The notes under the pieces are model-generated. The model was not told where the DNA came from, made no database searches, and saw nothing but the letters and a program-made list of their open reading frames with translations. From positions 12,525-76,524 of IMG/VR virus record IMGVR_UViG_3300042386_001406: a stretch of 64,000 bases of DNA. One strand, 5' to 3'. Positions within the stretch are counted from its first letter, which is position 1, and each line of letters begins with the position of its first letter. Shown here in pieces: positions 5,537 to 55,378 of the stretch. This stretch comes from a virus. The position numbers and the translations under genes are program-made.

Positions 5537-5800
5537 ATGAGTCAACCTTATGTAGACTTAGTTGTGACAGATGAATATGTGATTAGGGAATTTGATAAAA
5601 ACATTGACCCTATAGAGCTAATGTGGCATCGAGATGATGAAAACAGGATGGTTGAAGCTATAGAACCAACAGATTGGCTAGTACAACTAGACAACCAGTT
5701 ACCAATGTCTATGACCCAACCAATATTTATACCACGTCATATGTGGCATAGAACTATAAAAGGCACAGGTAAATTAAAGATAAAAATATATAAATCATGA
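5537..5800 (+). CDS. Small cupin-like protein
   Basis: WHRD.E..IFIP...WHR cupin-type His motifs. Confidence 0.55.
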   Translation: MSQPYVDLVVTDEYVIREFDKNIDPIELMWHRDDENRMVEAIEPTDWLVQLDNQLPMSMTQPIFIPRHMWHRTIKGTGKLKIKIYKS

Positions 5801-36417: not shown

Positions 36418-37053
36418 ATGCCAATAGCATCAGGACCAAATATAACAACAGACGGATTAATACTAGTATGGGATGCAGCTGACAAAAACTCATACCCGGG
36501 ATCAGGTACTACTATATACGATGTAAGTGGAAATGGATACCATGGAACTTTATATAATGGAGTAGGATATAGTACAGCAAATGGAGGTGTGTTAGTATTT
36601 GATGGTTCAAATGATTATGTGTTTGGTGGTCCTAATATGTCTTCAACTAATTACACTGTTATAGGAGCTGCTAAATACGTCTCTATAAGTGGTAGAGTAA
36701 TAGCAGGAGCAAATAACTGGTTATTAGGACACTGGGCCGGTTACACAAACGATCATTACGCTGAAGGATGGGTTTATTATAATCCTTCTATTTCAAATAC
36801 AGCATGGGCAATATATACTGCTACAGGAAATATAGGTGCAGATAGCTATGGGTTTTATATGAACAATGTTTTATTAGCTCAAAATAATGGAGGTTCACAA
36901 GGACCTAATGGAATATCACTTGGTGCTGGAGGAGCTGGTGGATATGAATTTAGTAATGCACAAGTTAGTTTTATATATGTTTACAACCGTGTATTAACAA
37001 CAGAAGAAATAACTCAAGTATATAATACACATAAAACACGTTACAATTTATAG
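36418..37053 (+). CDS. LamG/concanavalin A-like lectin domain protein
   Basis: DGLIL.WDAA..NSYPGSGT, FDGSNDY, YNRVLT..EI.Q.YN..KTRY. Confidence 0.75.
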   Translation: MPIASGPNITTDGLILVWDAADKNSYPGSGTTIYDVSGNGYHGTLYNGVGYSTANGGVLVFDGSNDYVFGGPNMSSTNYTVIGAAKYVSISGRVIAGANNWLLGHWAGYTNDHYAEGWVYYNPSISNTAWAIYTATGNIGADSYGFYMNNVLLAQNNGGSQGPNGISLGAGGAGGYEFSNAQVSFIYVYNRVLTTEEITQVYNTHKTRYNL

Positions 37054-37057
37054 TAAT

Positions 37058-38596: not shown

Positions 38597-38607
38597 TATT
38601 TATTTAC

Positions 38608-38955
38608 ATGACAGATAATTTATACCCAGATCGCCGTTGGTTAGTAATACCAACAACAATTACAAATTCAATTGATTTTAATCAAGTTGAAGAATCATCT
38701 ATTGACACACTACGTTTGTCTATAGATAAATCAGAGACATTTGTGAAATATCCTGTCACTGTAGTTACAGCATCTTACACACAATCTTATTGGAATCCTG
38801 AAACAATGGAATCAGGAAGCTACATAGTAGAAGCAGGAACATATGGACGTCCAGATATATATTCTCCAGCATATCCAGAATATGAATATCCACCAATGCT
38901 TGAATTATTAGCTACACCAGCTTGGACTTCAGGTAGTATGCCAACAACAATATAA
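38608..38955 (+). CDS. Small virion-associated protein, paralogue of 41129
   Basis: IDFNQVEESS.DTLR.SID.S.TFVK..LATPAW. Confidence 0.65.
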   Translation: MTDNLYPDRRWLVIPTTITNSIDFNQVEESSIDTLRLSIDKSETFVKYPVTVVTASYTQSYWNPETMESGSYIVEAGTYGRPDIYSPAYPEYEYPPMLELLATPAWTSGSMPTTI

Positions 38956-38966
38956 AATTTTAAGTT

Positions 38967-39671
38967 ATGGCATTTACCAATGGACCAAAAATAGGAGGAA
39001 TAACATTAAATCGTCAATACTTTCAAGACCCAGTATTAGGTAAATCTTTTACTGGAGGAACTACTACTACTAATTTAGTAGAAAATTCATCATATAACGC
39101 CGCTAACGCAACTGGTAAATTAACTAATGGTACTTATTTTTCATCATTAGGAGCTGGTTCTTTTTATTTTGATGGAAGTGATGATCAGATTAGATATGAT
39201 CAAGGAGCTAACACTTATGATCCTTTATTGTTACCTACTGTTTGTACAGTTTATGCTTGGGTATATCCTTTGTCTTCAACAGGAGGTATATTTTCACATT
39301 GGAGTGGAGGACCAGTAAATTTAGGATATTGGATAAATGGAGGAAAAATAGCTGTTTATCAATATGATGGTGTTTGGACCAATTATGATAGTTCAGGAGC
39401 ATCAGTATCAACAAATGCATGGTCTCAAATTGCTTGGGTTAGATCAAGTTCATCCAGTATGAGTTTATATTTAAATGATAGTTTAAATGGAACTTTAACA
39501 GCTACTTCTCCAAGAGTTTTTGGAGGTGGAAATAATGGTGTGTTAGGATCTTTATGGGGATGGCAGTTTTTTAATGGTTATATGGGTGTATTTATGATAT
39601 ATTTTGAAGCTCATAGTTTATCTCAAGTACAACAAACGTATAACATATTTCGTGATCGTTACGGAGTATAA
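38967..39671 (+). CDS. LamG-like lectin domain protein
   Basis: FDGSDD, NAWSQIAWV, Q.YN..R.RYGV. Confidence 0.7.
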   Translation: MAFTNGPKIGGITLNRQYFQDPVLGKSFTGGTTTTNLVENSSYNAANATGKLTNGTYFSSLGAGSFYFDGSDDQIRYDQGANTYDPLLLPTVCTVYAWVYPLSSTGGIFSHWSGGPVNLGYWINGGKIAVYQYDGVWTNYDSSGASVSTNAWSQIAWVRSSSSSMSLYLNDSLNGTLTATSPRVFGGGNNGVLGSLWGWQFFNGYMGVFMIYFEAHSLSQVQQTYNIFRDRYGV

Positions 39672-39684
39672 AACAAATTAATAA

Positions 39685-40398
39685 ATGGGAATATCAGCTG
39701 GACCAGATATAATACAAGATGGATTAGTACTAAATCTAGATGCTAGTGATAAGAATTCTTATCCTGGGTCAGGTACTACTTGGTTTGATATATCTCAAGG
39801 ATTAGTATTTAATTCTTATGGAACTACAACTTCTTGGGATATTGTTGGAGGAAGTAGAGCATTTACATTTAATGGCTCAGGTTATTGGGAATGTGGCTCA
39901 GGATTCAGTAATGTTAATTTAGGAGGTGATTGTACAATAATATTATGGTTATATGAAGTAGGGCATAGTGTTAGAAAAACTATTTTTGAAAAAGCAGGAA
40001 CAACATATGCCTCTTATCAACAAGAGGTAGCTATGACTTGGGAAGTAGGACAAGATATATCTTGGTATAGTAGAGCTATACCAGATTATGACTATGCTAG
40101 TACTAATGCGTGCACAACTAATGCTTGGAATATGATGGCTATTAAAATGTCTACAGGATTAACTTCTACATCTAGAACAGGATTTTATAGTAAAAATGGA
40201 GGACCTTTTATATCAACTTATACTTCACGTAGTAATACAGCATTAATACCTGCTGGCGCTATAAGAGTAGGGACAGGATATGCTGGAACTGTAGATAATG
40301 GGAGTATATCTAGTGTATTATGTTATAATAGAATGTTAAGTGATACTGAAATTTCCCAAAACTACAACGCTCAAAAATCCCGCTTCGGCCTCAAATAA
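39685..40398 (+). CDS. LamG-like lectin domain protein
   Basis: DGLVLNLDASDKNSYPGSGTTW; YNRMLS..EISQNYNAQKSRFGL. Confidence 0.75.
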   Translation: MGISAGPDIIQDGLVLNLDASDKNSYPGSGTTWFDISQGLVFNSYGTTTSWDIVGGSRAFTFNGSGYWECGSGFSNVNLGGDCTIILWLYEVGHSVRKTIFEKAGTTYASYQQEVAMTWEVGQDISWYSRAIPDYDYASTNACTTNAWNMMAIKMSTGLTSTSRTGFYSKNGGPFISTYTSRSNTALIPAGAIRVGTGYAGTVDNGSISSVLCYNRMLSDTEISQNYNAQKSRFGLK

Positions 40399-40416
40399 TC
40401 AAATAGTTATACCCGT

Positions 40417-41121
40417 ATGGCAACACAATTCGCAAATGGTAAAATAGTAACAGACGGTTTAGTATTAAATCTAAACGCAGCTGATAGAAATTCATATCCT
40501 GGATCAGGTACGACGTGGACTGATATGAGTAGTGGAGGCTACAATGGTACCCTGACTAACGGGCCTATGTATTCAACCGGAGACGGCGGTAGTATTGTTT
40601 TCGACGGAAGTGATGATTACGTTCAAGTAACATCCCCGTTTGGAAACGTAGATTGGTCTTCAAGAGCATGGTCTTTTAGTGCTTTTATGAAGTTAGACGT
40701 TTTAGGAGATAGATGTTTAGTAAATTTAAATTCTGCAAACAGTAGTGATTATGTTGTAACAAACGTGTTTTACACAGACGGAAAGAGCTATTGGTATTTT
40801 ATAAAAAACTCAACTGCAGTACAGACAAACTTTGTCCAAACGACTAGTAATTTTTCAACTGGTCAAATTTTTCATTTCGTAATGACCTATAACGGAAATG
40901 GTCTATCTACAGGAAATATATTTTTCTATAAAAATGGAGTTCAACTAACAACAACAAACGGAGGTAGTGCAGGATTAGCAAATCAAACCGGATTACAAAT
41001 AGGCGGAAATTATTTTCTTGATGGAAACGTCTACAACTTTATCATGTACAATAGAGCACTCTCAGCCTCAGAAGTACTACAAAATTTTAACGCCCAAAAA
41101 TCACGCTTCGGATTAATATAA
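40417..41121 (+). CDS. LamG-like lectin domain protein
   Basis: DGLVLNLNAADRNSYPGSGTTW; YNRALSASEVLQNFNAQKSRFGL. Confidence 0.75.
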   Translation: MATQFANGKIVTDGLVLNLNAADRNSYPGSGTTWTDMSSGGYNGTLTNGPMYSTGDGGSIVFDGSDDYVQVTSPFGNVDWSSRAWSFSAFMKLDVLGDRCLVNLNSANSSDYVVTNVFYTDGKSYWYFIKNSTAVQTNFVQTTSNFSTGQIFHFVMTYNGNGLSTGNIFFYKNGVQLTTTNGGSAGLANQTGLQIGGNYFLDGNVYNFIMYNRALSASEVLQNFNAQKSRFGLI

Positions 41122-41128
41122 TAAAAAT

Positions 41129-41407
41129 ATGGAAACACAATTACAAGAGTATGACAACAGAGAATTCATGATATTTAATGTATCTGAATTACCACAAATT
41201 GATTTTACCCAAGTATTAGAAACATCAGCTGATACTGTTAGAAAATCAGTTGATGAAACAAAAACATTTGTTAAATGGGATGGCACTATACCTCAATGTG
41301 TAGCTGATTTAACTACTAAGGAAGGACCATATAATTATGATGAAATTTTAGCAATTCTTGCTACACCAGAATGGTCAAATCCTGATACAGGTAGCATGAA
41401 ACCTTAA
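41129..41407 (+). CDS. Small virion-associated protein, paralogue of 38608
   Basis: IDFTQVLETSADTVRKSVD.TKTFVKW..LATPEW. Confidence 0.65.
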   Translation: METQLQEYDNREFMIFNVSELPQIDFTQVLETSADTVRKSVDETKTFVKWDGTIPQCVADLTTKEGPYNYDEILAILATPEWSNPDTGSMKP

Positions 41408-41458
41408 TATTTATACCAAACCCGTATCTCAGGGACAGTGAACTGAGGTAATATAAGT

Positions 41459-44400
41459 ATGGCTAATGAATTTGTTGCTCGCAATGGTATCATTGCGTTG
41501 AATGACTCTCAAATAACCGGATCGTTAAGTGTTGGCAGTAATGTTACTGCCTCTAATGCGCTTATCACAGGTACAATAACTGCCCAAACTTTATTAGTAC
41601 AGAATATTACCTCATCTAGAGATTATGTGACGGGTTCTACTGTATTTGGATCATCACTTTCTAACACACACCAATTTACAGGTTCTGTTTCAATAACAGG
41701 AAGTTTAACTATACCTTCTATTCCACAAGGTACTACTGAAACTAATATATTAGTAATAGATGGTGATGGTGGATTTAAATATAGAAATAATTTAAGTTTA
41801 CAAGGTGCCCAAGGTGCCACTGGACCTCAAGGTGCCCAAGGTGCTGTTGGACCACAGGGAGCTCAAGGAGCCCAAGGTGCTGTTGGTCCACAGGGTATTC
41901 AAGGTATACAAGGAGCCCAAGGTGCAGTTGGGCCTCAAGGTATTCAAGGTATACAAGGAGCCCAAGGGGCTACTGGACCGCAGGGAGCACAAGGCGCTCA
42001 AGGCGCTCAAGGTGCAACAGGACCTCAAGGAGCCCAAGGCGCCCAAGGAGCTACAGGACCCCAAGGTATACAAGGTATACAAGGTATACAAGGCGCACAG
42101 GGTGCAACTGGACCTCAAGGTGCCCAAGGCGCTCAAGGTGCTCAAGGAGCTACAGGCCCACAAGGAGCTCAAGGAGCTACAGGACCCCAAGGTATACAAG
42201 GTATTCAAGGTATTCAAGGTATTCAAGGCGCACAGGGTGCAACTGGACCTCAAGGTGCCCAAGGCGCACAAGGTACACAAGGCGCAACAGGACCTCAAGG
42301 TATTCAAGGTATTCAAGGTATTCAAGGTATTCAAGGCGCCCAAGGTGCTACAGGTCCTCAGGGTGCCCAAGGCGCTCAAGGAGCTCAAGGAGCTACAGGT
42401 CCACAAGGAATCCAAGGTGTACAAGGAGCTCAAGGAGCTACAGGTCCACAAGGAATCCAAGGTGTACAAGGAGCTCAAGGTGCTACAGGACCTCAAGGTA
42501 TTCAAGGTATTCAAGGTGCCCAAGGTGCTACAGGCCCTCAGGGTGCCCAAGGCGCCCAAGGTGCTCAAGGTGCAATTGGACCACAAGGCGCCCAAGGTGC
42601 AACTGGACCAAACGCTGGAATTACTTCATATACAAATCCAGGTGATAATCGTGTTATCACTTCAGTTAACTCATCTACTATTAATGGTGAGGCTAACTTA
42701 TTATTTGATGGTTCAACCTTAAGAATAACAGGATCTTTAATACAATCTGGATCAACAGGTGCTTCATTATATGGAAGTGGTTCAGGTGTATTTACAGTAG
42801 ATGGTACTGTAGGTAGATTATTCCAAGTAGATGATTCACTTACAGGATCATTATTCTCAGTTAATACAGCTGGTGGTTTACCTGTAATAGAAGCCTTCTC
42901 AGACAATACAGTTAAAATTGGTAAATATGGATCTGAAGCGATTGTAATATCTGGTAGTAATAATACAACCCAAATCAGTGGTTCAATTAAATTACCTTCA
43001 TTAGGTTCAACTTCAGACACAACTGTAGTAACATTTAATACTACAACTAAAACAATAGGATATAATACAGTAGCAGGACCTCAGGGAGCCCAAGGCGCAA
43101 CTGGACCTCAAGGCGCCCAAGGTGCTACAGGTCCTCAGGGTGCCCAAGGCGCTCAAGGTGCTCAAGGCGCAACAGGACCTCAAGGTATTCAAGGTATTCA
43201 AGGTGCCCAAGGCGCCCAAGGCGCAACAGGTCCACAAGGTGCTCAAGGTGCCCAAGGCGCTCAGGGCGCGACTGGACCTCAAGGCGCTCAAGGAGCCCAA
43301 GGAGCCCAAGGTGCTCAAGGAGCAACTGGGCCTCAAGGTGCACAAGGCGCTCAGGGAGCCCAAGGCGCGACTGGACCTCAAGGCGCTCAAGGTAACCAAG
43401 GCGCTCAGGGAGCCCAAGGTGCACAAGGTATTCAAGGTATTCAAGGTATTCAAGGAGCTCAAGGTTCACAAGGTGCCCAAGGTTCTCAAGGTGCACAAGG
43501 TGCAACTGGGCCTCAAGGAGCTCAAGGTGCTACTGGTCCAAATGCAGGTATAACTTCATATACAAATCCAGGCGATAATAGAGTATTAACTTCAGTTAAC
43601 TCATCTACTATCAATGCTGAGACAAATTTAACATTTGATGGATCTACATTAACTGTATCTGGAAGTACAGCAAATAAAGTATCAGTTATAGGTTCAGGTA
43701 GTGGTGTAAATACAACTCTATTCTCAGTAGATGGAGCTAATGGTAGATTATTTGAAGTATCAGATGATTTATCTAACTCACTATTTTCAGTTAATACTAT
43801 TGCAGGTATTCCTGTAATTGAAGCATTCGCTGATAATACAGTTAAATTAGGTAAGTTTGGAGCTGAAGCTATTGTAATATCAGGAAGTAACAATACAACT
43901 CAGATTAGTGGTTCTATTAAATTACCGAGTTTAGGATCTACATCTGATACTACAGTTGTTACTTTTAATACAACAACAAAAACTATAGGATATAATACAG
44001 TAGCAGGTCCTCAAGGTGCACAGGGTGCTCAAGGTGCACAGGGTGCTCAAGGTGCTCAAGGTGCTCAAGGTATTCAAGGTATTCAAGGCTCTCAAGGAGC
44101 CCAAGGCTCTCAAGGTGCCCAAGGAGCCCAAGGTGCAACAGGCCCTCAAGGTGCCCAAGGTGCTCAAGGATCTCAAGGTGCACAAGGCGCCCAAGGCGCT
44201 CAAGGCGCGACAGGCCCTCAAGGTGCCCAAGGTGCTCAAGGATCTCAAGGTGCACAAGGCGCACAAGGAGCCCAAGGCGCGACAGGCCCACAAGGTGCTC
44301 AGGGTAGCCAAGGCGCTCAAGGAGCACAGGGTGCCCAGGGAGCATCTGGCGCCACTATCTTAGGTAGTGCTAATACATGGACTGGTGCTAACTATTTCCA

Positions 44401-45418
44401 AAGCAATCTTGGTGGATATGCTGGTGTTTTAAGTAGTCCTCCTCTTCAAGCATATTCAACATCTAACAACTCAGCATTTATGTCTTTTCATAAAGGAGGA
44501 GTATATGCTGTTAATATGGGATTAGATGCTGATGATGTTTTAAGAATTGGTGGATGGAGTGCTTCAGCTAATAGATGGCAACTTGACATGAGCGGTAATA
44601 ATACTGTTGCTAGTTCTTTCAGAGCCCCAATATTCTATGATTCGGATAATACAGGATATTATTTAAATCCAGCTAGTACATCTAATATAAATCAAACCCA
44701 GTTAGACTATAATATGGCTACTGGTGTTGGTAATAATAGTTTTAATGTATCTAAATCTTTACTAGGTAGTATTCATATAGTAAATGGAGCTGGTCCTTCA
44801 TCTGGTGATGGAAGACAAGCAGGTATTACTTTTATGGGAAGTTCAGCTTCAGAAGCTCAAGCTGGTATATATGTTGGTAATAATAACAGTGCTGGTACTT
44901 ACATGGGATTTGCTACAACAGATTCTTATGCTACTGGTCCTCAATTATTCATGTCAGCTTATAATGGTGGATATGTTTACTTTCATAGATCATATGTTGA
45001 AGCTGCGGGTTCATTCCGTGCTCCAATATTCTATGATTCAGCTAATACAGCATATTACTTTGATGGTTCAGCTACAGGTGACTCAATTCGTGTAGCTGGT
45101 GATGTAGTAGCTTATTACTCAGATGAACGTTTAAAAGATATTAAATGTAATATATCAGATGCTTTATCTAAAGTAATGACTTTAAATGGTTTCTATTATG
45201 AACCAAATAAAATAGCTCAGTCATTTGGATATGAGAAAAAATTACAAATAGGTTTATCAGCCCAACAAGTAGAAACTGTTTTACCTGAAGTTATTAAAGA
45301 TGCTCCTATAGGAAATGGATATAAAACATTAGATTATTCTAAATTAGTACCATTACTTATTGAAGCCATCAAAGAACAACAAAAACAAATTGATGAGTTA
45401 AAAACTAAATTAAAATAA
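41459..45418 (+). CDS. Collagen-like tail fibre with C-terminal peptidase S74 chaperone
   Basis: Three Gly-X-Y tracts; [36 protein letters not shown]. Confidence 0.88.
41801..44350 (+). repeat. Collagen GXY tracts (~41801-42610, 43075-43540, 44006-44350) separated by a duplicated spacer domain
   Basis: GAQ/GPQ/GIQ/GAT/GSQ triplets with synonymous codon variation. Confidence 0.9.
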
Positions 45419-45425
45419 AGTTTTT

Positions 45426-46349
45426 ATGGCTTTACCAGCTAGTGGACAAATATCAATGAATAATATTAGAACTGAGTTAGGGATATCTACTCAATCACCT
45501 TTCTCTCTAGATACTGCTATAGATGGTGGATATGTTTATCTTAATGAATGTAGCGCTGCTAGACCAAACGCTGCTACCCCACAAACAATAAGTGAATGGT
45601 ATAGCTATAATCATAGCGCTGTTTGTACAAATAGAGGTAGTTTTAAATTTAGCAGCACTAGTTGTGCTGATGCTTGTACTGGACCTTTTACAACAACTCT
45701 TTATTCTTGTGGATTATCAATTGGAAATATTCTTAGATCAGGATTAATATCTCCAGGTAACTACTGTGGAGGTCCTGTTATTAATATTGTTGGATATTAT
45801 AGCAATGGAACAACATGTTATCAAGTTACTGATCAAACTATTGTAGCTATATCTTCTTGTCCTACTCCAACACCTACACCAACACCAACCCCTACTCCAA
45901 CACCAACACCTACTCCAACACCTACACCAACACCTACACCAACACCTTCATCAGGTGTTACTATTACAGTATATACTAAACAAAATACTAATGGTGTTGG
46001 AAATGGATATAGTGTTTATTATCGTCTAAACGGATGTAGTGGAAAGGGTGCATGGCAACAGTTATCTTGTGGTAGTTGCCCAACTAGTGATAGCTGCTCA
46101 GCTTGCTCTGGTACTATCTCAGCTAATTCAAACCAAGATATATCAATCGCTATACTAGATTGTAGTCTTGGAACAGGTATATCATTTAATGCTAGTGATA
46201 ATACAAGTACTTGTCCTTCAAACGCAGCTAACTATTGTGATAATGCTGACTGTACAGGTACACCATTCACATTTAATTCTGGTACATCAAATAAAAATAT
46301 AGCAATTAATGTTTATACAGGTAAACTTGGATATTTGTATTGCTTATAA
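45426..46349 (+). CDS. Cys-rich fibre-tip/adhesin-like protein with Pro-Thr linker
   Basis: MALPASGQIS..IRTELG N-terminus right after the S74 fibre; two Cys-rich halves. Confidence 0.55.
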   Translation: MALPASGQISMNNIRTELGISTQSPFSLDTAIDGGYVYLNECSAARPNAATPQTISEWYSYNHSAVCTNRGSFKFSSTSCADACTGPFTTTLYSCGLSIGNILRSGLISPGNYCGGPVINIVGYYSNGTTCYQVTDQTIVAISSCPTPTPTPTPTPTPTPTPTPTPTPTPTPTPSSGVTITVYTKQNTNGVGNGYSVYYRLNGCSGKGAWQQLSCGSCPTSDSCSACSGTISANSNQDISIAILDCSLGTGISFNASDNTSTCPSNAANYCDNADCTGTPFTFNSGTSNKNIAINVYTGKLGYLYCL

Positions 46350-46363
46350 TAAATTAATTAATT

Positions 46364-47206
46364 ATGCCATATAGTGAAGGTACAAAACAATATGTTGGAA
46401 GAAGTACAGTAACAAATTATTCAATACCAAGTCCAAATCCTTTTGCTGAAGGTAGTATATCAGTACCTAGAGTATTAAATTACACAAATGGTATAAGAAC
46501 TGTTCCTATAATGCATAGAGCATTTAGAAATTTAGAGATAAAATATGCTAATGCTTTAGTAGCCACAGCTTGTGAATATAGAGGTGTTAGTGCTGGTAGT
46601 TTAAGAGTTTTAGATATTGGATATGGATTAGGATATAGTACCCAAAGATTCTATGAATTAGGAGTTGGTACTTATCACTGTGTTGAATTAAATGAAAGTA
46701 TATGGAATGACGCTAATAGCCATGATTATGCTCAAGGCAGTGGTGCAGCAGTGGCTATCCCTGAAAGTTATCAGTTTTTTTGGACTAGTTTTGAACAATA
46801 CGCTGATGGCTATGAGGGGGGAAAAGGTGAGGAGGCACAATGGTATGATATAATATATTATAGTCCAAGTGATGATTTTGGTAATATGGGAATATTTAAT
46901 ATCCTTAGACGAGTAAGTAAACAAGGCACTATATTAGGTGTTCAAGGTATCCCTTTATTTGGTAGCGCGGTGAATATAGGTGACTTTGTTGTTCAAACAC
47001 CAAGTGGAGTAGCTCCAGATGCTGATGTTTATGATTCTTCTTTTACAGTTGGTATGTATAATGCTCTAAATAATATAGGATATTTTAGTGTATATTTTCA
47101 ATACTTAAATTGTGATGGAGGAGATGGATTCGGTCTTCCATTCCCTATTGAGGTTGGAAGTCCATGCGGTAATGGAACATGGATGTCTGATCAACCACGT
47201 TTATAA
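46364..47206 (+). CDS. Class I SAM-dependent methyltransferase
   Basis: VLDIGYGLGYS motif I, VELN acidic motif II, YDIIYY. Confidence 0.65.
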   Translation: MPYSEGTKQYVGRSTVTNYSIPSPNPFAEGSISVPRVLNYTNGIRTVPIMHRAFRNLEIKYANALVATACEYRGVSAGSLRVLDIGYGLGYSTQRFYELGVGTYHCVELNESIWNDANSHDYAQGSGAAVAIPESYQFFWTSFEQYADGYEGGKGEEAQWYDIIYYSPSDDFGNMGIFNILRRVSKQGTILGVQGIPLFGSAVNIGDFVVQTPSGVAPDADVYDSSFTVGMYNALNNIGYFSVYFQYLNCDGGDGFGLPFPIEVGSPCGNGTWMSDQPRL

Positions 47207-47215
47207 AAATTACAA

Positions 47216-47248
47216 TTTGGTTACCTTACAAATCTAATATATATTTAT
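47216..47248 (+). promoter_or_regulatory. TTTG-N20-TATATTTA(T) promoter
   Basis: Intergenic; exact 20-nt spacer. Confidence 0.6.
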
Positions 47249-47267
47249 ATATAACAATAAATAAATT

Positions 47268-47726
47268 ATGGGAAAAATCACATTAAAGTTACATGAAATT
47301 TATTCACTACATGGTGAATTAAACGGTTTAGTAAATAATCAAACTGGTGAAGTTGTTTCAAAAGGATTATTAGCTGAAAAACTTAAACTAAGTACCAAAT
47401 ACTATGTTACTGAATTAGCTAAAACCGTTGATAAAGAAAGAGAAATAGTTGATAAAGTAAAAGAAGAATTAATTAAAAAACATGGTGAAGTAGATGAAAA
47501 TGGAGGTGTTTTCATTTCACGATTTATCAACACTGTAAAAAATGAAGAAGGTAAGATCATATCAGGAGATATTAATCCTAAGATAATATCTTTTGAAAAA
47601 GAATTTAATGAGTTTCTTCAAGATGAAAAAACCATTGAATATAAAGAATTTAAACTATCTGATTTTGATGGTATTGAAACTGAAGGTATTTACACTACTT
47701 TTTTTAAACTTGTAAAACCTGAATAA
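47268..47726 (+). CDS. Hypothetical protein
   Basis: Clean ORF with its own promoter motif. Confidence 0.6.
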   Translation: MGKITLKLHEIYSLHGELNGLVNNQTGEVVSKGLLAEKLKLSTKYYVTELAKTVDKEREIVDKVKEELIKKHGEVDENGGVFISRFINTVKNEEGKIISGDINPKIISFEKEFNEFLQDEKTIEYKEFKLSDFDGIETEGIYTTFFKLVKPE

Positions 47727-47745
47727 TTTTTAAATATTTATTATT

Positions 47746-48096
47746 ATGAATATGACATATACTTTTAGTGTAACTTCATTAGACATTGCTCCAACTGGAA
47801 GTGATGACCATAATGATGTTGTAACTCGCGTACGTTACAACTATAATGGTGTTAGTGACACTGGATATAGTGGATCATTTGCTGGTGTAACACCAATGCC
47901 TACTCCATCTGGAAGTTTTATTCCATTTGAGGATTTAACTGAGGAAGAAGTTATTGATTGGTTAGAAGTTGTTACTACTGGTTCTCAACAACATATGCAA
48001 CAACAAATTCAAAAACAAATCAACAACCAAATAAATCCACAATATGTCCCAGCTCCATTACCATGGCCAACTGGTTCAGTATCTCCAACTCCTTAA
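47746..48096 (+). CDS. Small fibre-associated protein
   Basis: FIPFEDLTEEEVIDWL..PLPW pattern; five [S/T]GS motifs. Confidence 0.55.
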   Translation: MNMTYTFSVTSLDIAPTGSDDHNDVVTRVRYNYNGVSDTGYSGSFAGVTPMPTPSGSFIPFEDLTEEEVIDWLEVVTTGSQQHMQQQIQKQINNQINPQYVPAPLPWPTGSVSPTP

Positions 48097-48113
48097 TGTT
48101 AAAATAATAAGTT

Positions 48114-49022
48114 ATGGCTCATGAATCTAACAATGAAAATGTACTATGGTACATTGACTCAATTAATCCAAATGGGGCTACTTATGAAGTAGCTGGATGG
48201 ATTTCTCATAAAACATCAGAAATTATTAGTTTATCATTAGGTGATAAAGATATTAAATACAGTATTGTTTATCGCCCTGATGTGATAGCAGTTTATCCAT
48301 CTTTTAATACTTTTGGTTTTAAATTTACTGCAAATAAAGATGATATTAAAAAACCAATAAATGTTCATTTAAAAAATGAAATAATATATAATGTTGGTAA
48401 TTTAGAATCTCAAGTTATTTTAAAATCAGGTTTTACAAACTCTCCTAAAAGTTTAATTATTGTAGATAATTTTTATAATGATCCTGATATGATCAGAGAT
48501 TATATTATAAAAAATGTAAAATTTGATTTCTCAACATATCATACAGGTAGAAGAAGTTTAGATCGTTTTATATTAGAAGGAACAAAAGAAAAATTTGAAG
48601 AACTTTTAGGTAGACCTATACATAATTGGAATCATCCAACTTATGCAAATGGAAAATTCCAATATTGTACTTCACAAGACCGAGTTGTATATCATATAGA
48701 CACACAGAATTATGCGGCCATGGTGTATTTAACACCAGATGCCCCATTACAAACAGGTACTGCCTCTTATAGAAGTAAATTAACAGGAGCTACTCGTTTT
48801 GAAAATGGAGAGGAAGGAGAGTTATATCAAAAAACATTTAAAGGAGTTAGTAATGAACTAAACTTCTATGATAAATCAACTTGGGAAGAAGTAGATAGAA
48901 TAGCAAATGTATATAATCGTTTAGTTATGTTTGATGCTAAAAGGTTACACTCAGCAACAGAATATTTTGGTGATGCTCTAGAAAATGCTAGACTGTTCCA
49001 TTTATTCTTCTTCGATATTTGA
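48114..49022 (+). CDS. 2OG-Fe(II) oxygenase-like protein with extra N-terminal domain
   Basis: IIVDNFY.DP, YHID, AAMVYLTP, NRLVMFDA..LHSA, RLFHLFFFD. Confidence 0.7.
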   Translation: MAHESNNENVLWYIDSINPNGATYEVAGWISHKTSEIISLSLGDKDIKYSIVYRPDVIAVYPSFNTFGFKFTANKDDIKKPINVHLKNEIIYNVGNLESQVILKSGFTNSPKSLIIVDNFYNDPDMIRDYIIKNVKFDFSTYHTGRRSLDRFILEGTKEKFEELLGRPIHNWNHPTYANGKFQYCTSQDRVVYHIDTQNYAAMVYLTPDAPLQTGTASYRSKLTGATRFENGEEGELYQKTFKGVSNELNFYDKSTWEEVDRIANVYNRLVMFDAKRLHSATEYFGDALENARLFHLFFFDI

Positions 49023-49041
49023 TCGATACTTAAAAATTGTT

Positions 49042-50178
49042 ATGACAAATCCAACTATTTGTTTTGCAACTATTTGCAAAAATGAATCTCACATCATTAA
49101 AAGAACCTTAGAATCTGTATACAAGTATATAAGTTACTGGGTTATATGTGACACTGGCTCTACAGATAATACTAGAGAAATAATTACTGAGTTTTTTAAA
49201 GAAAAAAACATACCAGGAGAACTCCATATTGATGAGTTCAAAGATTTTGGTTATAATAAGAGCTTGTTAATGAAACGAGCTCAATATAAAGCAGATTATA
49301 TTTTACAAATTGACGCTGATGATCCTCTAATTGGTGAGTTTAAATTTACTCAACAAGATGTTGGTCATGATGTTTATTTAGCTAATGTAAAGAGAGGTAC
49401 AACTAATTATAAAGCATTTACTTTATTTAACGCTAAACGCTTATGGAAATTTTGTAGTGTAGCTCATACAGTTATTAAAACTATAGATAATCCTTATTTT
49501 ACAACAGGTGACTTAACCCATTATGATTTTTATGTTTCATCTGAAGATATAGGAGCCAGAAAAGCAGATCCAGAAAAATATCTTAAAGATGCTAAAAAAC
49601 TTAAAAAACAATTTTTTGACACCTTACTTGATGATCCAGATGATTTAAATCTTCGTTCTATTTTCTATACAGCGCAAAGTTATATGGACTATGGAATGCA
49701 TGAAGAAGCAATTAGATGGTATAGATTATATACTAAGATAAGAGGTAATTGGCTTGAAGAACATTTTGAAGCACAATTAAGAATAGCTAATTGTTATATT
49801 AGACTAGATGCTGGTTCTAATTTAATAGAACATGAAATGAAAAAAGCCATTGACATTTATCCAGATAGAGCAGAACCATATTTTATTTTAGGTAATTATT
49901 TTAATAATAAAAAACAATCAGAAAAGGCATATTATTATCTTAAACAAGCTCAATCTAAAGATGTAGAGTTAGTTAAACAAAAATACTTACTATTCATAAA
50001 TGAGTTTAACTATGGAAAGTATGTGAATGATGAATTATCAGTGGCTTGTTATTGGACAGATAGATATGATGAAGGAATAAAACTAATAGAAGAAATCATT
50101 GATGATCCTAAACACAATCATGATAACAAACGATTACTAGATAATTTGAATTTCTTAAAACAAAAAATTAATAAATGA
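49042..50178 (+). CDS. GT2 glycosyltransferase with TPR repeats
   Basis: ICKNE..I..L.S, ICDTGSTD.T, IDADD, then FY.AQSY..P.RAEP TPR helices. Start set at ATG 49042. Confidence 0.85.
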   Translation: MTNPTICFATICKNESHIIKRTLESVYKYISYWVICDTGSTDNTREIITEFFKEKNIPGELHIDEFKDFGYNKSLLMKRAQYKADYILQIDADDPLIGEFKFTQQDVGHDVYLANVKRGTTNYKAFTLFNAKRLWKFCSVAHTVIKTIDNPYFTTGDLTHYDFYVSSEDIGARKADPEKYLKDAKKLKKQFFDTLLDDPDDLNLRSIFYTAQSYMDYGMHEEAIRWYRLYTKIRGNWLEEHFEAQLRIANCYIRLDAGSNLIEHEMKKAIDIYPDRAEPYFILGNYFNNKKQSEKAYYYLKQAQSKDVELVKQKYLLFINEFNYGKYVNDELSVACYWTDRYDEGIKLIEEIIDDPKHNHDNKRLLDNLNFLKQKINK

Positions 50179-51995
50179 TAAAGTTACATTTATTAACTCG
50201 TTGTACTAGATTAAGCAATTTAAGAATCATTAGAGACACTGTATTCCCTAGTCCCTTAGATGTGACATGGCATATAATTTTTGACACTAGTATTGTAAAA
50301 AGTTTTAATAAGGTTTTAATAAATGAATTAAAACAACTTCCAACAAAAATTTATTACATAGAAAGTAATGGTACTGACTATTTGTATCCTCAACTAAGTG
50401 ATATTATAGGTACTATTGATGAAGGATTTGTGAGTATATTAGATGATGATAATATTATACATTCTGATTTTTACAATAAAATTAAAATAGCAATTGAACA
50501 AAATCCAGATAAAAAAGCATTTGTTTATAAACAATATATTGGAGGTAAAGATTTTACAGGCTTAAAAGTTAGAGATATAGGTCCTGAACATATGAAACTC
50601 CAACATATAGATTCAGCTCAATATATAATTGAAGCTAATTTATATAAGACAAGACGATATGAAGAAGGATATGATGCTGATGGTAGATTTATAGAACCAT
50701 TCTATAAAGAACATGCTGATAAATTTTGTTTTGTAGATGAGATATTATGTTATTATAATCATTTAACATTTTCTAGAAAAGCTAATTTACCAAGAATATT
50801 ATATATAGGCCCAGGTTTGCCAGAGCTTAGATCTAAACAGCTTTATAATTATGAGGAAGATAAATTAGATGTTTTTTATACAACAAATGATAACAATATT
50901 GATTCTATTTTAATAAATTATGATCCAAATGCTATTGTCACTATAGGTGAAAAAGATAGTGATTTTCCTAACTTATATAGACAACCAGCTGAAGTAAGAA
51001 AAAAATGGATTCATGCTAAAGATGTTGATTTAGATTTAGGCACTAAAGCATACTATTGCGCTATGATCCAAATGTTAGAAGATAACACATCTGAATTAAT
51101 ATCGTTTTTTACTCCAATTTATAAAACTGGAGAAAAATTATATAGAACATATCAATCATTAGTTGACCAAACTTATAAAAATTGGGAATGGGTTTTAATA
51201 GATGATTCTACAGATGAATTAACAACAAAAATAGCTGAAGAAATAGCGTCAAAAGATCATAGAGTAAAAGTATATAGTTTTAAAGAAAAGAGTAATGGTA
51301 ATATTGGTGATGTAAAATACAGAGCAGCTATGTTATGTAGAGGTTACTTATTAGCCGAATTAGATCATGATGATATATTAACTGAAAAATGTGCTGAGTA
51401 TCTATACATTGCTAGCGAAACATATCCAGATGCTGGTTTCTTTTTTACAGACTGGGCTGAAGTAAGTGAACATATGGATTCATATTGTTATGAAGAAGGA
51501 TTTGGATTAGGATATGGTAGATATAGAGAAGAAAAATATAAAGGGTATATAATAAAAGTATGTGACCAACATAATATCAATCCTAAAACAATACGTCATA
51601 TTGTAGGAATACCTAATCATATTAGAGCATGGAAGCGTGATGTCTATTTATCAATTGGAGGACATAATAGAAATTTAACTGTAGCTGATGATTATGATAT
51701 AGTTATAAGAACATTTCTAAAAACTAAGTTTTGTAAAATACCAAAATTAGGTTATCTTCAATTTATATACTTACACCAGAATAAAACAGATGAAAATAGT
51801 CAAGCAGACTCAAGATCTGATATTCAAAGACGTATTAGAACTATAGCTAATTTTTATAATGATGCTATAAGAAAAAGATTTGAGGAATTAGGTGTTGAAG
51901 ATTGGGCTTATTTAACTAATGGATGTGATATACAAGACATACCTAGTAGATATGGTGATCAAGAAAATTATGTAAATTATATACTTAATATTTAA
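50175..51995 (+). CDS. Tandem two-domain GT2/GT-A glycosyltransferase
   Basis: N-domain ILDDDN..ADG.F; C-domain TPIYK..QTY.NWEWVLIDDS..ELDHDD..ADDYD. Confidence 0.85.
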   Translation: MIKLHLLTRCTRLSNLRIIRDTVFPSPLDVTWHIIFDTSIVKSFNKVLINELKQLPTKIYYIESNGTDYLYPQLSDIIGTIDEGFVSILDDDNIIHSDFYNKIKIAIEQNPDKKAFVYKQYIGGKDFTGLKVRDIGPEHMKLQHIDSAQYIIEANLYKTRRYEEGYDADGRFIEPFYKEHADKFCFVDEILCYYNHLTFSRKANLPRILYIGPGLPELRSKQLYNYEEDKLDVFYTTNDNNIDSILINYDPNAIVTIGEKDSDFPNLYRQPAEVRKKWIHAKDVDLDLGTKAYYCAMIQMLEDNTSELISFFTPIYKTGEKLYRTYQSLVDQTYKNWEWVLIDDSTDELTTKIAEEIASKDHRVKVYSFKEKSNGNIGDVKYRAAMLCRGYLLAELDHDDILTEKCAEYLYIASETYPDAGFFFTDWAEVSEHMDSYCYEEGFGLGYGRYREEKYKGYIIKVCDQHNINPKTIRHIVGIPNHIRAWKRDVYLSIGGHNRNLTVADDYDIVIRTFLKTKFCKIPKLGYLQFIYLHQNKTDENSQADSRSDIQRRIRTIANFYNDAIRKRFEELGVEDWAYLTNGCDIQDIPSRYGDQENYVNYILNI

Positions 51996-51998
51996 AAT

Positions 51999-52586
51999 AT
52001 GTCATTTTTATTTTCAAAAGAATTAAACGATCCTCAAAATTATTATTACTACACAAATGGTTTTAATAGTGAAGAATTAGACAAAGTTTATAAAGATGTA
52101 GCTACATTAGATTTTGAACAAGCAACTACTATAGACTCAAAATCAAATGGTAAAGAAATTAGATCATCATCTGTTAAATGGATACCAAACACATCACAAT
52201 GGAGCTGGTTGTATTTTAAATTAATGGATCTAGCTGTACAAGCTAATAATGCGTTATGGCATTTTGACTTATACTCAGTACAAGATTCAATTCAATATAC
52301 AGAATACTATGCTACAGAAAATGGACATTATACATGGCATCAAGATTTTGGACCAGGTACTCCATCATTAAGAAAAATATCAATCACAGTTCAATTATCA
52401 GGACCTGATGAATATGAAGGTGGTGATTTAGAATATTGGCAAGGCGGAAATAATATTATACAAGCCCCTAAAGATAAAGGTGTTGTATTTATATTTCCAT
52501 CATATATGATGCACCGTGTAACACCAGTAACTAAAGGTATACGTCGATCATTTGTTTTATGGGTAGGAGGAGAACATTATAAATAA
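51999..52586 (+). CDS. 2OG-Fe(II) oxygenase, prolyl hydroxylase-like
   Basis: YTWHQD, RKISITVQLS..YEGGDL, FPS..HRVTPVTKG.R.S.V.W. Confidence 0.88.
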   Translation: MSFLFSKELNDPQNYYYYTNGFNSEELDKVYKDVATLDFEQATTIDSKSNGKEIRSSSVKWIPNTSQWSWLYFKLMDLAVQANNALWHFDLYSVQDSIQYTEYYATENGHYTWHQDFGPGTPSLRKISITVQLSGPDEYEGGDLEYWQGGNNIIQAPKDKGVVFIFPSYMMHRVTPVTKGIRRSFVLWVGGEHYK

Positions 52587-52640
52587 ATTTGGTTGTTCTT
52601 TAGACTTCATATATATTTATATCAAATAAAATAAATTATT

Positions 52641-52892
52641 ATGGTAACATTTTTAATTCTAGCTGCTGTTATTTCTGTTGTTGTTGGACTTTGGCTTCTT
52701 AATCAAAAACAAAATGAAGAGTTAAAAGAAATTAATAGTAATATTCATCCATTTGTTGATGATCTAGCTCCTGAAGCTACACCAGCTCCAGTAGCTGAAA
52801 GTATTGCTAAGAAAAAAGCCGCTAAGAAAAAACCAACTGTAGTTAAAAAAACACCAGCTAAAAAAGTAGCTAAGAAAACTACTAAAAAATAA
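52641..52892 (+). CDS. Membrane-anchored protein with Lys/Ala-rich tail
   Basis: N-terminal TM; KKKAAKKKP..PAKKVAKK tail. Confidence 0.6.
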   Translation: MVTFLILAAVISVVVGLWLLNQKQNEELKEINSNIHPFVDDLAPEATPAPVAESIAKKKAAKKKPTVVKKTPAKKVAKKTTKK

Positions 52893-52894
52893 TT

Positions 52895-53125
52895 ATGGGA
52901 GTTATATCTAAAAAATTAACAGAAGAAGAATTAAAATCTATTAGAGATATTAAACAAGAGTACACTAATTTAGCTTTAGCATTAGGTGAATTAGAATTAC
53001 AAAAATTAGGTGCTCATGAAACATATAAACAACTAGTAGAAAAAGAAAATAAAATAGCTGAGCAACTTCGTGGAAAATATGGTGATGGAACAATTGATCT
53101 TTCTACAGGAGAAATAAAAGCATAA
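52895..53125 (+). CDS. Small coiled-coil protein
   Basis: LGELELQK..KYGDGTIDLSTGEI. Confidence 0.6.
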   Translation: MGVISKKLTEEELKSIRDIKQEYTNLALALGELELQKLGAHETYKQLVEKENKIAEQLRGKYGDGTIDLSTGEIKA

Positions 53126-53156: not shown

Positions 53157-53196
53157 GAAGAAAGCCTCGACAGCAATGTCGGGGCTTCTTCGTTTT
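53157..53196 (+). terminator. Rho-independent terminator
   Basis: AAGCCTCGAC-AGCAAT-GTCGGGGCTT followed by CTTCGTTTT. Confidence 0.7.
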
Positions 53197-53242
53197 ATAA
53201 CACACTCTATATATTTATCAGTAGACAAAATCTATTTAAAAC

Positions 53243-55378
53243 ATGGCGCAAGAAACATTAATTTCTCCAGGCGTACTCGCACGCGAGAATGATTTATCAC
53301 AAATAACACAAGGTCCAGTTACAGTTGGTTTAGCTTTAGTTGGTCCAACAGTTATGGGTCCAGTAAATGTACCTACAGTAGTTACTTCTTTTAGTGACTT
53401 TAAAAACAAATTTGGTGGTATGTTTACTAGTGGTGGAGCTAATTATGAGTTCCTAACATCAATATCTGTTAGAAATTATTTCCAACAAGGTGGTACTACA
53501 GCCTTAATTACTAGGGTAACTAACACTAATTATAGCCCAGCTACATCTAGTGCTATTCCAAATAATATTCCTGGTGCTACAGCTGCTAACGCAGGTGCTT
53601 CTATTGATTTAACAACATCACCTATTTTTAACCTAGTAGCTGCTCGTGTTGATTTAGGATCTACTAGTGTAAATCTTATTGGTACAACATTTGATAATTA
53701 TCAAGTTGATAGTAACGGAAATAAGAGTGTTTTCTTCAACATGTATAATACTTTTACAGTTGATACTTTCGGATACTCAGCTTCAAAAGCAGTTAATGAA
53801 ACTAGCGGATTAAGCATGTTAACTTCTAGTTATAACACTGGTACTAATGTGTTAATTATTAGTGCTTCTTCAGCTGGTGCTGCAGCTAACAGTTGGACAA
53901 TGTATGCTGGTCAATATTATTTCTATGAAAATTCATTCTTCCCACTTAGTGGTTCATTTACAGGTGGTGTTGATGGTAGTGGCCAACCAACATTTGTATT
54001 AGAAACTTTATCTACTGGTATTTTAATGAACAACTCAGGTTCTATTTTATCTGATAATTCATTAATAAGTGGTTCAACAGATAATTTAAGATGGGAAATT
54101 CAAAATGCTAATACTTCAAGTGGTACATTTACATTATTAGTTCGTCAAGGTAATGACAATCAAAACAGTAAAATTGTTTTAGAAACATATTCTAATGTTT
54201 CATTGGATCCAAATCAACCTAACTATTTAGAGGCTGTTGTTGGTAACCAATCAAAAACTGCTGTTAAAGATGCTGATGGTCAATATTATATTCAAGTATC
54301 TGGTGACTATCCAAATAATAGCCGCTATGTACGTGTAAAACAAGTTAACTACACAACTCCAAACTACTTTGATAATGCTGGAAATGCCAAAAACGAATAC
54401 ACACAATCAATACCAGTAAATGGTAGTGGTTCTCAAGGTGGTGCTTTTGGTGGTGCCTCTGGTAATGACTTAAATAATATTGGTAACACATTATTTACTA
54501 ACATTGGTTCAACAACTCAAGGTTTAGTTCAAGGTAACTATGCTACAGCTTCTGCTTTATTAAGCAATAAAGATGAATTTGATTTCAATTTAGTAGCTAC
54601 TCCAGGTTTGATCCAATCATTACACTCTTCAGCAGTAGGTAATTTTATCAGTTTAGCTGAAGAAAGAGGTGATTGTTTCTACATCACTGACTTGTCACCA
54701 TATGGTGTTACACTTAAAACTGTAACTAACCAAGCAGCTGGTTTAGATACTAACTATGCTGGTGTTTACTGGCCTTGGGTTCAAGTAATATCTCAAGAAA
54801 CTGGTAAGCGTGTATGGGTTCCAGCTTCAACAATCATGCCAGGTGTATATGCATTTAATGATAATGTGAGTGCTGAATGGTTTGCTCCAGCTGGTTTAAC
54901 AAGAGGTGGATTAGGTAATGTATTACAAGCTGAAAGAAAATTATCTCCAACAGATCGTGATAATCTATATGCTGGTAAAGTTAATCCAATTGCTACTTTC
55001 CCTAATATTGGTGTAGCTGCATTTGGTCAGAAAACATTACAGAAAAAAGCTAGTGCTTTAGATCGTATCAACGTTCGTCGTCTATTAATTGCTCTTAAGC
55101 GTTACATTGGTAATGTATCTGAAAACTTAGTATTCGAACAAAATACAGCTGTAACTCGTAATGCGTTCTTAGCTCAAGTTACTCCATACTTAGAAAGTGT
55201 ACAACAACGTCAAGGTTTATACGCGTTTAAAGTAGTAATGGATGAATCAAATAACACTCCAGATGTAATTGATCGTAACCAATTAGTAGGTCAGATCTAT
55301 TTACAACCAACTAAGACTGCTGAATTTATCTTATTAGATTTCAACATCTTACCAACTGGTGTAGAATTCGGTTCATAA
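53243..55378 (+). CDS. Tail sheath protein (gp18-like)
   Basis: SPGV..RE.D, YWPWV, WFAPAG..RG, GQKTLQ..SALDRINVRRL, QPTKTAEFI. Confidence 0.95.
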   Translation: MAQETLISPGVLARENDLSQITQGPVTVGLALVGPTVMGPVNVPTVVTSFSDFKNKFGGMFTSGGANYEFLTSISVRNYFQQGGTTALITRVTNTNYSPATSSAIPNNIPGATAANAGASIDLTTSPIFNLVAARVDLGSTSVNLIGTTFDNYQVDSNGNKSVFFNMYNTFTVDTFGYSASKAVNETSGLSMLTSSYNTGTNVLIISASSAGAAANSWTMYAGQYYFYENSFFPLSGSFTGGVDGSGQPTFVLETLSTGILMNNSGSILSDNSLISGSTDNLRWEIQNANTSSGTFTLLVRQGNDNQNSKIVLETYSNVSLDPNQPNYLEAVVGNQSKTAVKDADGQYYIQVSGDYPNNSRYVRVKQVNYTTPNYFDNAGNAKNEYTQSIPVNGSGSQGGAFGGASGNDLNNIGNTLFTNIGSTTQGLVQGNYATASALLSNKDEFDFNLVATPGLIQSLHSSAVGNFISLAEERGDCFYITDLSPYGVTLKTVTNQAAGLDTNYAGVYWPWVQVISQETGKRVWVPASTIMPGVYAFNDNVSAEWFAPAGLTRGGLGNVLQAERKLSPTDRDNLYAGKVNPIATFPNIGVAAFGQKTLQKKASALDRINVRRLLIALKRYIGNVSENLVFEQNTAVTRNAFLAQVTPYLESVQQRQGLYAFKVVMDESNNTPDVIDRNQLVGQIYLQPTKTAEFILLDFNILPTGVEFGS

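Follow-up and report, generated by a model that had tools for sequence, protein, structure and literature searches.

An apparently virus-specific oxygenase-glycosyltransferase module beside collagen-like tail-fibre genes of an uncultured aquatic myovirus

In the Skp1 pathway, the prolyl hydroxylase PhyA is followed by Gnt1 and then by the two-domain glycosyltransferase (GT) PgtA. Viral enzymes of related kinds have also been described. Mimivirus L230, a lysyl hydroxylase-glucosyltransferase fusion, acts on viral collagen-like proteins, and A064R of PBCV-1, which has two GT domains and a class I S-adenosylmethionine (SAM) methyltransferase domain, builds and methylates the capsid glycan (PMC9614988). 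The virions of mycobacteriophages are glycosylated by phage enzymes (Freeman et al. 2023, cited in PMC12619734). Virus-encoded modification of a virus's own structural proteins is therefore already known in kind, and the activity considered here would be a variant of it. In this study, we analyzed a window of 64,000 nucleotides, bases 12525-76524 of the 76.5-kb IMG/VR contig IMGVR_UViG_3300042386_001406, in which a block of enzyme genes (46364-52586) lies between the tail-fibre genes and the tail sheath gene. The block encodes a SAM methyltransferase, two 2-oxoglutarate (2OG)-Fe(II) oxygenases, a family 2 GT with tetratricopeptide repeats (GT2-TPR) and a two-domain GT (dGT2), all in one orientation, just as an initial annotation of this DNA had reported.

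The contig is 48% complete according to CheckV, has a G+C content of ~32%, and carries all of its genes on the + strand. It was assigned to the myoviruses because its PHROG matches name terminase, portal, major head protein, baseplate wedge, sheath, tube and hub genes; the source is an uncultured aquatic low-GC myovirus. Comparison of the block with its relatives inclines us, with modest confidence, to the reading that its core enzymes modify the phage's own collagen-like tail fibres post-translationally and are expressed together with the late structural genes.

A conserved core and its collagen-like neighbours

An IMG/VR search with an alignment of the DUF6445 oxygenase, the first core enzyme of the block, retrieved the same two-domain protein, at 44-100% identity, from 80 loci; the gene neighbourhoods of relatives described below are all drawn from IMG/VR loci. 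A full-length dGT2 homologue stands directly 3' of the DUF6445 gene in 79 of these 80 viral loci, and the second oxygenase (Oxy3) is present in 52. Only nine have GT2-TPR, and 19 have a sheath gene no more than 10 kb away. Judged by gene order, the conserved core appears to be DUF6445, then dGT2, usually then Oxy3, and to be virus-specific, with GT2-TPR as an apparent accessory of a close clade. A scan of 185,579 prokaryote species genomes, made with patterns specific to the two-domain DUF6445 subfamily and not to wider DUF6445 relatives, gave two matches, both on short contigs of metagenome-assembled genomes (MAGs), and the subfamily seems to be essentially viral. Seven close relatives (L002-L008; GT2-TPR identity 60-100%) keep DUF6445, GT2-TPR and dGT2 5' of the sheath, six of the seven also keep Oxy3 and the small protein p83, and only some have the methyltransferase and the Cys-rich protein with a Pro-Thr (PT) linker (PT/Cys protein) encoded next to it. 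These differing distributions indicate that the block is not the single cassette first proposed, but a composite of the core, the accessory GT2-TPR, a methyltransferase associated with the PT/Cys protein, and a backbone gene for a 152-aa protein.

The core trio lies beside, and often directly after, collagen-like fibre genes. In the window, the proposed substrate is a collagen-like tail fibre of 1319 aa (41459-45418, + strand), whose 181 Gly-X-Y triplets are spread over three runs and which has a Peptidase_S74 chaperone domain at its C-terminus. Collagen-like open reading frames (ORFs) were found at 59 of the 69 DUF6445 loci that span 12 kb or more (86%), compared with 7 of 32 sheath-matched relatives lacking the cassette (22%) and 2 of 15 distant GT2-TPR loci. 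After dereplication at 70% identity, collagen was present in 14 of 16 clusters, and in seven the end of the collagen gene was at most 400 nt from the module. The co-occurrence proposed earlier as a check was thus borne out for collagen. It failed for PT tracts, which were found in only 7 of the 80 loci and are therefore at most a clade-specific extra target.

In the triplets of the window's fibre, position X is mostly occupied by Ala (61%), Pro (18%) or Ile (14%), and position Y mostly by Gln (80%) or Thr (15%), with Pro at 0%; Lys is likewise at 0% over the 181 triplets. In a sample of 18 cassette loci, roughly three out of four collagens have Pro at 8-48% of their X positions and hardly any at Y; the others contain no Pro. 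The collagens neighbouring the module in related loci have 0-5% Pro at Y, and some of these loci have 12-36% Lys at Y. All five cassette-less relatives sampled have collagens with 0% Pro. The median number of Pro residues per 100 triplets was 26.8 at Oxy3-positive and 5.75 at Oxy3-negative loci, although these loci are not independent. A strict pairing of Oxy3 with Pro-rich collagen was rejected, with four Oxy3-negative loci at 26-33 and two Oxy3-positive loci at ~5 Pro per 100 triplets.

A closer correspondence was found between collagen type and the N-terminal half of dGT2. This half carries the sequence LDDDN at residues 89-93, which 67 of 73 full-length homologues share. The DxD motif within it is degenerate (HGD, SGD or NDN) in L055, L066 and L090/L091/L096, and the whole half is absent in L036. 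These six loci are exactly those whose neighbouring collagens are of a Pro-free Gly-(Thr/Ser)-Ser type, and they belong to three separate lineages on a tree of the dGT2 C-terminal half. L076, sister to the L090 group, has kept DDD and has a different collagen type. The DHDD motif of the C-terminal half and the catalytic residues of DUF6445 are invariant throughout. Since the decay of the N-terminal half tracks collagen type, this GT head appears to serve a feature specific to Gln/Pro-type collagens; the C-terminal half and DUF6445, which never vary, would then serve something common to all fibre types.

The arrangement of the genes is consistent with late expression. The motif WATATTTAT has 22 copies in the window, 19 of them on the + strand, where ~11.6 would be expected over both strands. 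It usually lies 15-45 nt 5' of structural genes (terminase, portal, collagen fibre, sheath, tube, hub and tape measure); the + strand copies that precede a predicted gene sit just 5' of its start codon, and the copies at 5722 and 28381 are unplaced. One copy, AATATTTAT, precedes the collagen fibre gene (41406-41414, +), and a second copy of the same form (47733-47741, +) heads an operon running from a DUF7936 gene to Oxy3. The form TATATTTAT is found at 47240-47248 and at 52612-52620 (both +), and a further copy of the motif at 53210. Between the 47733 motif and 52612, the + strand contains no other copy and no terminator-like site; a terminator-like hairpin of 11 pairs followed by a T-run lies at 53162-53187 (+). 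Within the operon, stop and start codons overlap or are 3-20 nt apart. This tight packing, together with the motif copies and the hairpin, suggests that DUF7936, DUF6445, GT2-TPR, dGT2 and Oxy3 form one late unit. The initial annotation had placed the enzymes under a structural-gene promoter motif: the motif does recur 5' of both the structural genes and the operon, and it is from this placement that we infer a promoter role for it.

The enzymes and their proposed chemistry

The DUF6445 protein (48114-49022, +; PF20043, E 1.6e-10) consists of an N-terminal beta-sandwich (residues 1-105) followed by a double-stranded beta-helix (DSBH) domain in a model with a predicted local distance difference test score (pLDDT) of 81. 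All 80 homologues carry H194, D196, H279 and R293 unchanged. Among solved structures, protein prolyl hydroxylases match the DSBH domain best, namely OGFOD1 (Z 14.0), Trichoplax PHD (13.5) and a complex of a prolyl 4-hydroxylase (P4H) with EF-Tu (13.4), and further matches include Dictyostelium PhyA (13.2), PBCV-1 vCPH (12.3) and the collagen P4H (C-P4H) C-P4H-II (11.7), so that other prolyl hydroxylases score higher than C-P4H-II and vCPH. Mimivirus L230 (6ax6) reaches Z 11.3 and LH3 (8zgc) 10.5; AlkB-type enzymes (~11) and TET (10.6) lie below the prolyl hydroxylases. Because DUF6445 remains intact beside collagens free of Pro and Lys, neither residue explains its substrate, which could, on the structural comparison, be a sugar. 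Distant single-domain DUF6445 genes also accompany GT2 and GT2-TPR genes, and one such locus has two collagen genes and a GT1/methyltransferase/FkbM fusion. A full-text literature search on 'DUF6445' found no papers.

Oxy3 (51999-52586, +), the third core enzyme, is a 195-aa 2OG-FeII_Oxy_3 oxygenase of the prolyl-hydroxylase/PKHD type (PF13640, E 2e-13) that also matches PKHD/PiuC (7e-5) and a Phytophthora P4H (4e-4). It has kept H114, D116, H172 and R183, and the HDH(R/K) set is present in 53 of 53 homologues. Both oxygenases have the features of the 2OG-Fe(II) superfamily in the HxD/E...H triad and a basic 2OG-binding residue, and the DUF6445 model shows the DSBH fold. Oxy3 shares PF13640 and the HxD...H...R/K set with PBCV-1 vCPH/A085R, a Chlamydomonas P4H and animal C-P4H. 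In contrast to this group as a whole, the module has no peptide-substrate-binding domain, and sequence identity is 8-17%. The system is not a classical collagen P4H system, because Pro is found at X only. P4H-type oxygenases (phrog_61) are frequent in cyanophages, and a literature search found no paper tying phage prolyl hydroxylases to collagen fibres.

Similar to L230, and to animal LH3/PLOD3 acting with COLGALT1, the module would couple a 2OG-Fe(II) oxygenase of viral origin to a GT-A glycosyltransferase acting on the virus's own collagen-like proteins. Here, however, oxygenase and GT are separate genes, and the oxygenases are DUF6445 and P4H-like, not PLOD-type. Lysyl-hydroxylase chemistry of the L230 type was rejected for this phage, whose fibre has no Lys in its 181 triplets; for this reason, and because no PLOD domain is apparent, the module does not seem to be a member of the L230/LH3 group. 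Neither classical Y-position prolyl 4-hydroxylation nor lysyl hydroxylation thus survives as a description of the locus. The earlier label 'eukaryote-like' is apt as an analogy, and does not extend to homology with the animal pathway. The analogy extends to the Skp1 pathway, which has a comparable hydroxylate-then-glycosylate logic: GT-A enzymes, including one with two domains, work after a hydroxylase.

The second core enzyme, dGT2, is a protein of 606 aa (50175-51995, +) whose start codon overlaps the GT2-TPR stop codon (ATGA). Its C-terminal half is a clear GT2, with a PF00535 match (E 5e-16) and a DxD-type motif, the DHDD at residues 397-400, and it weakly matches the polysaccharide GTs TuaG, WcaA and EpsE. 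The N-terminal half is probably a GT-A domain as well: 6 of 14 homologues weakly match PF00535 (best E 0.0034), and its ESM-Atlas score to viral GT2 clusters is 0.96. Alignment of the two halves by hhalign was not significant (probability 0.6%), and the profile of the N-terminal half found nothing in PDB. Two of 14 homologues of this half weakly match GT25 (E 0.021), and no significant GT25/COLGALT-type domain was found in it. In L083 (4160-5500), the N-terminal domain retains DDD and is joined to a domain resembling GT2-TPR; a downstream ORF of 591 aa links the C-terminal half to an FkbM-like methyltransferase. This arrangement looks like domain shuffling and, from its sequence, would be no exception to the pattern of DxD motif and collagen type.

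GT2-TPR (48985-50178, +) is a GT2 of the GT-A type with C-terminal TPR repeats (PF00535, E 3e-8). Relatives align to it from residue 22-23 onwards, and its true start is therefore probably Met20 at 49042. In PDB, its sequence is best matched by GmaR (4.4e-7), the Listeria flagellin O-GlcNAc transferase, and by SunS (5.9e-4), a peptide S-glycosyltransferase. Both act on protein or peptide acceptors and, like GT2-TPR, have an N-terminal GT2/GT-A domain followed by TPR-like repeats. The similarity is limited to ~95 residues in the part that binds the nucleotide; against TIGR04195, the match (E 3.5e-8) covers residues 21-113 only and scores 32.7 bits, compared with a SunS equivalog cut-off of 350. 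What GT2-TPR has in common with the SunS/GmaR family is therefore the architecture and not a full-length match. Homologues with 48-57% identity were found in L010, L011, L013, L015, L017, L019 and L020; these are contigs of 200-470 kb and contigs that bear the label GVMAG (giant-virus MAGs) in IMG/VR. Collagen-like genes, DUF6445 and a GT2 are also present in L019. Either the gene is shared by phages and giant viruses, or these contigs are mis-binned.

The methyltransferase (46364-47206, +; 280 aa) has no match in Pfam or NCBIfam. Its AlphaFold model (pLDDT 60) matches class I SAM methyltransferase folds only, with at least 500 Foldseek matches at E<=1e-3 and VIA Z scores of 10.5-12.2, and its ESM-Atlas features match methyltransferase clusters at 0.95-0.96. 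Motif I is VLDIGYGLG (in context L-R-V-L-D-I-G-Y-G-L-G) and E108 is invariant. The Rossmann-like fold, the GxGxG-type motif I and the acidic residue past strand 2 thus agree with class I SAM methyltransferases, within a model of pLDDT 60. A spermidine-synthase-like activity, suggested by the top Foldseek matches, seems less likely: motif I reads GYGLG instead of GGGDG, and the ranking by VIA is unspecific. The gene stands directly 3' of the PT/Cys gene in all four viral contigs that carry it, and by this distribution it appears to travel with the PT/Cys protein and not with the oxygenase/GT core. Its proposed membership of the cassette is therefore not supported. Related modules contain fusions of methyltransferase and GT domains, which makes methylation of a sugar as likely as a +14 modification of protein. 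This recalls A064R, where a viral multi-domain GT and a class I methyltransferase also occur together. The likeness to A064R is one of domain make-up, however, and the methyltransferase here is a separate gene, two ORFs away from the GTs.

The PT/Cys protein (45426-46349, +; 307 aa) has a central (PT)x20 linker between two Cys-rich halves. It matches no family, and its N-terminus is fibre-like (MALPASGQISMNNIRTELG). Its C-terminal half stands alone in L136, and its N-terminus recurs in L109. It is possibly an accessory fibre and an additional substrate.

Taken together, these features suggest the following scheme. The enzymes, which would be soluble, may act late in infection on the fibre chains before or during trimerisation. 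Oxy3 would hydroxylate the X-position Pro in GPQ and GPT triplets, and the GT domains may then add sugars, taken from host nucleotide sugars, to the hydroxylated residues, to Thr/Ser, or to both. In the close clade, the GmaR/SunS-like GT2-TPR could add protein-directed glycosylation, with the PT linker or similar Ser/Thr-rich tracts as possible targets, and the methyltransferase could methylate the neighbouring PT/Cys protein or a sugar. The benefit may be a stabilised, charge-free triple helix that lacks hydroxyproline, resistance to proteases, or shielding. More speculatively, and with considerable doubt, the DUF6445 enzyme with its own beta-sandwich and the two-headed GT may together carry out a collagen chemistry that is not known from animals or giant viruses, acting on Gln, Thr and X-Pro triplets devoid of both Lys and Y-Pro. 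Phages could in this way assemble triple-helical fibres that are stable and charge-free; the N-terminal GT head would be a specialist for Gln/Pro-type collagens and would be dropped when the fibre switches to Gly-Thr/Ser-Ser repeats.

Weighing the fibre reading against its alternatives

Several observations weigh against modification of the collagen-like fibres. The counts of loci are inflated because related phages share synteny, relatives without the cassette also carry collagen fibres, and the co-variation of DxD motif and collagen type amounts to ~3 independent events. The Pro residues stand at X, not at the classical P4H site (Y), and the catalytic residues of DUF6445 are intact beside collagens that have neither Pro nor Lys. 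Sugar and nucleoside oxygenases of the HygX, EvdO and PolD types also reach Z 10-12 against DUF6445. A cyanomyovirus island with psbA, UDP-galactopyranose mutase, a GT2-methyltransferase fusion and single-domain DUF6445 and GT2 genes has no collagen in 20.6 kb. Moreover, the GTs of tail-fibre islands, such as the 'host recognition cluster' of pelagimyophages and cyanomyophages, have been published as modifiers of host lipopolysaccharide (LPS) (Zaragoza-Solas et al. 2020, PMC7029224). Finally, the module occurs in no cultured phage: a megablast search of the block against 50,697 phage records gave no match, and the nearest isolate, Flavobacterium phage vB_FspM_immuto (sheath identity 48%), has only small ORFs and an annotated lysozyme between fibre and sheath, which shows that the enzyme block is absent there.

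Among the alternatives, the one that fares best is remodelling of the host cell surface, which we regard as unlikely. In infected cells, the GTs and oxygenases would change the LPS, capsule or S-layer glycan of the host, so that superinfection is blocked or progeny do not re-adsorb to lysed cells, and they would be found among the fibre genes only because the region is a hypervariable island. Such a role has been published for GTs of this kind (PMC7029224, PMC12801897). The 'host recognition cluster' resembles the present locus in having GT genes among tail-fibre genes, and it differs in that no link to collagen repeats was described. The weak matches of the dGT2 C-terminal half to polysaccharide GTs agree with surface remodelling, as does the cyanophage pairing of DUF6445 and GT2 with UDP-galactopyranose mutase away from collagen. 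However, this explanation accounts neither for the difference in collagen association (86% versus 22%) nor for the decay of the N-terminal GT head where the collagen type changes. The enzymes have no transmembrane segments, no sugar-nucleotide, flippase or polymerase genes are found in the block, and the genes are placed in a late operon. In structure, the enzymes come closest to hydroxylases and GTs that act on proteins, and the two-domain DUF6445 subfamily is nearly absent from bacterial genomes in the subfamily-specific scan.

It is also conceivable, though less probable still, that the enzymes, DUF6445 above all, modify other proteins, either host translation factors or ribosomal proteins, which OGFOD1, PPHD and PiuC-type enzymes hydroxylate, or only non-collagen virion proteins (the PT-linker protein, capsid or sheath), and that their adjacency to collagen is historical. 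The top structural matches (OGFOD1, Tpa1, the P4H/EF-Tu complex and PiuC) fit this possibility, as do the integrity of DUF6445 beside Pro-free collagens, the co-occurrence of GT2-TPR and the PT protein in the close clade, and the abundance of phrog_61 oxygenases in cyanophages. Against it speak the pairing of the oxygenase with a double GT at 79 of the 80 loci, which host-factor hydroxylases do not show, the rarity of PT tracts, and the co-variation with collagen type, for which it offers no explanation.

DNA hypermodification is the least credible explanation. Phage TET-type DNA-modification cassettes combine a methyltransferase, a 2OG oxygenase and a GT, the same trio of enzymes as here; the methyltransferase would make 5-methylcytosine, the oxygenase oxidise it and the GTs glycosylate it as a defence against restriction. 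Although GTs have been discussed as phage DNA modifiers (PMC12619734, PMC12801897), this possibility is very remote for the present block, whose oxygenases belong to PF13640 and to DUF6445, the latter nearer to prolyl hydroxylases than to TET/AlkB, whose methyltransferase has no PCQ/ENV or DPPY-type motifs and is linked to the PT/Cys protein and not to the oxygenases, and whose GT2-TPR resembles protein GTs and lies in a late structural operon. Neither a Tet_JBP (PF12851) nor a C5 DNA-methylase (PF00145) domain was found on the 76.5-kb contig, which represents 48% of the genome, the PF12851 search being a weak one whose control matched nowhere.

Modification of the phage's own fibres therefore remains the reading that we prefer. 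Of the virion-protein modification initially proposed, the part concerning collagen is supported by the linkage to collagen genes, by the DxD co-variation and by the protein-modifying relatives of the enzymes, and the part concerning PT tracts is not.

Neighbouring genes and implications

The interval 46364-52586 includes two ORFs that do not encode enzymes of the module. The first (47268-47726, +) encodes a 152-aa protein (phrog_1401), a conserved backbone gene that lies outside the module because it adjoins the sheath in relatives without any of the enzymes. The second (47746-48096, +) encodes the DUF7936 protein, which has 116 aa and is rich in Pro, Thr and Ser. Two more small backbone genes (52641-53125, +), for proteins of 83 aa and 76 aa (the latter helical), precede the tail sheath gene (53243-55378, +), which is identified by a PHROG match and forms the downstream boundary of the island. 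The 83-aa protein (52641-52892) has one N-terminal transmembrane helix and a Lys/Ala-rich tail, and its gene is kept just 5' of the sheath in relatives whether or not the cassette is present. On the other side of the island, a fibrinogen-C-like gene (35477-36187) and an array of Laminin_G_3 (concanavalin-like) genes (36418-41407) lie 5' of the collagen fibre gene and probably encode interchangeable receptor-binding tips.

In related loci, the module is also accompanied by additional GT2 genes, by GT17-like genes, by a second Oxy3 and by an ATP-grasp R2K_3 gene; extra genes of the last three kinds adjoin the core at L065:14005-14949, L090:12741-13691, L042:5278-6096 and L037:12738-13310. The ATP-grasp R2K_3 gene (of peptide-ligase type), the GT17-like genes and the second P4H-type oxygenase hint at further modifications of the fibres. 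A 370-aa ORF 5' of the module in L065 (7752-8864) has a weak match to an intein-splicing domain (E 7e-7, below the Pfam cut-off).

In the glycosylation of mycobacteriophages, as summarized in the article citing that work, phage GT genes also lie among structural genes; the targets named there are the C-termini of capsid and tail-tube subunits, and no oxygenases are involved. Chemistry of the type proposed here has been described for the collagen of mimivirus, the capsids of chloroviruses, and the capsids and tubes of mycobacteriophages; phage tail fibres are not among its documented targets. If our reading is correct, the receptor-binding fibres of many abundant, uncultured aquatic myoviruses are hydroxylated and glycosylated by the phages' own enzymes, and the 'LPS-modification' GTs in the tail-fibre islands of marine phages need to be re-read. 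The enzymes might also serve to stabilise recombinant bacterial collagens without an animal prolyl hydroxylase. The co-variation of GT domain and collagen repeat offers a concrete and testable pairing of enzyme and substrate. Modification of the fibres would also add an extra layer to the biology of host range and protease resistance.

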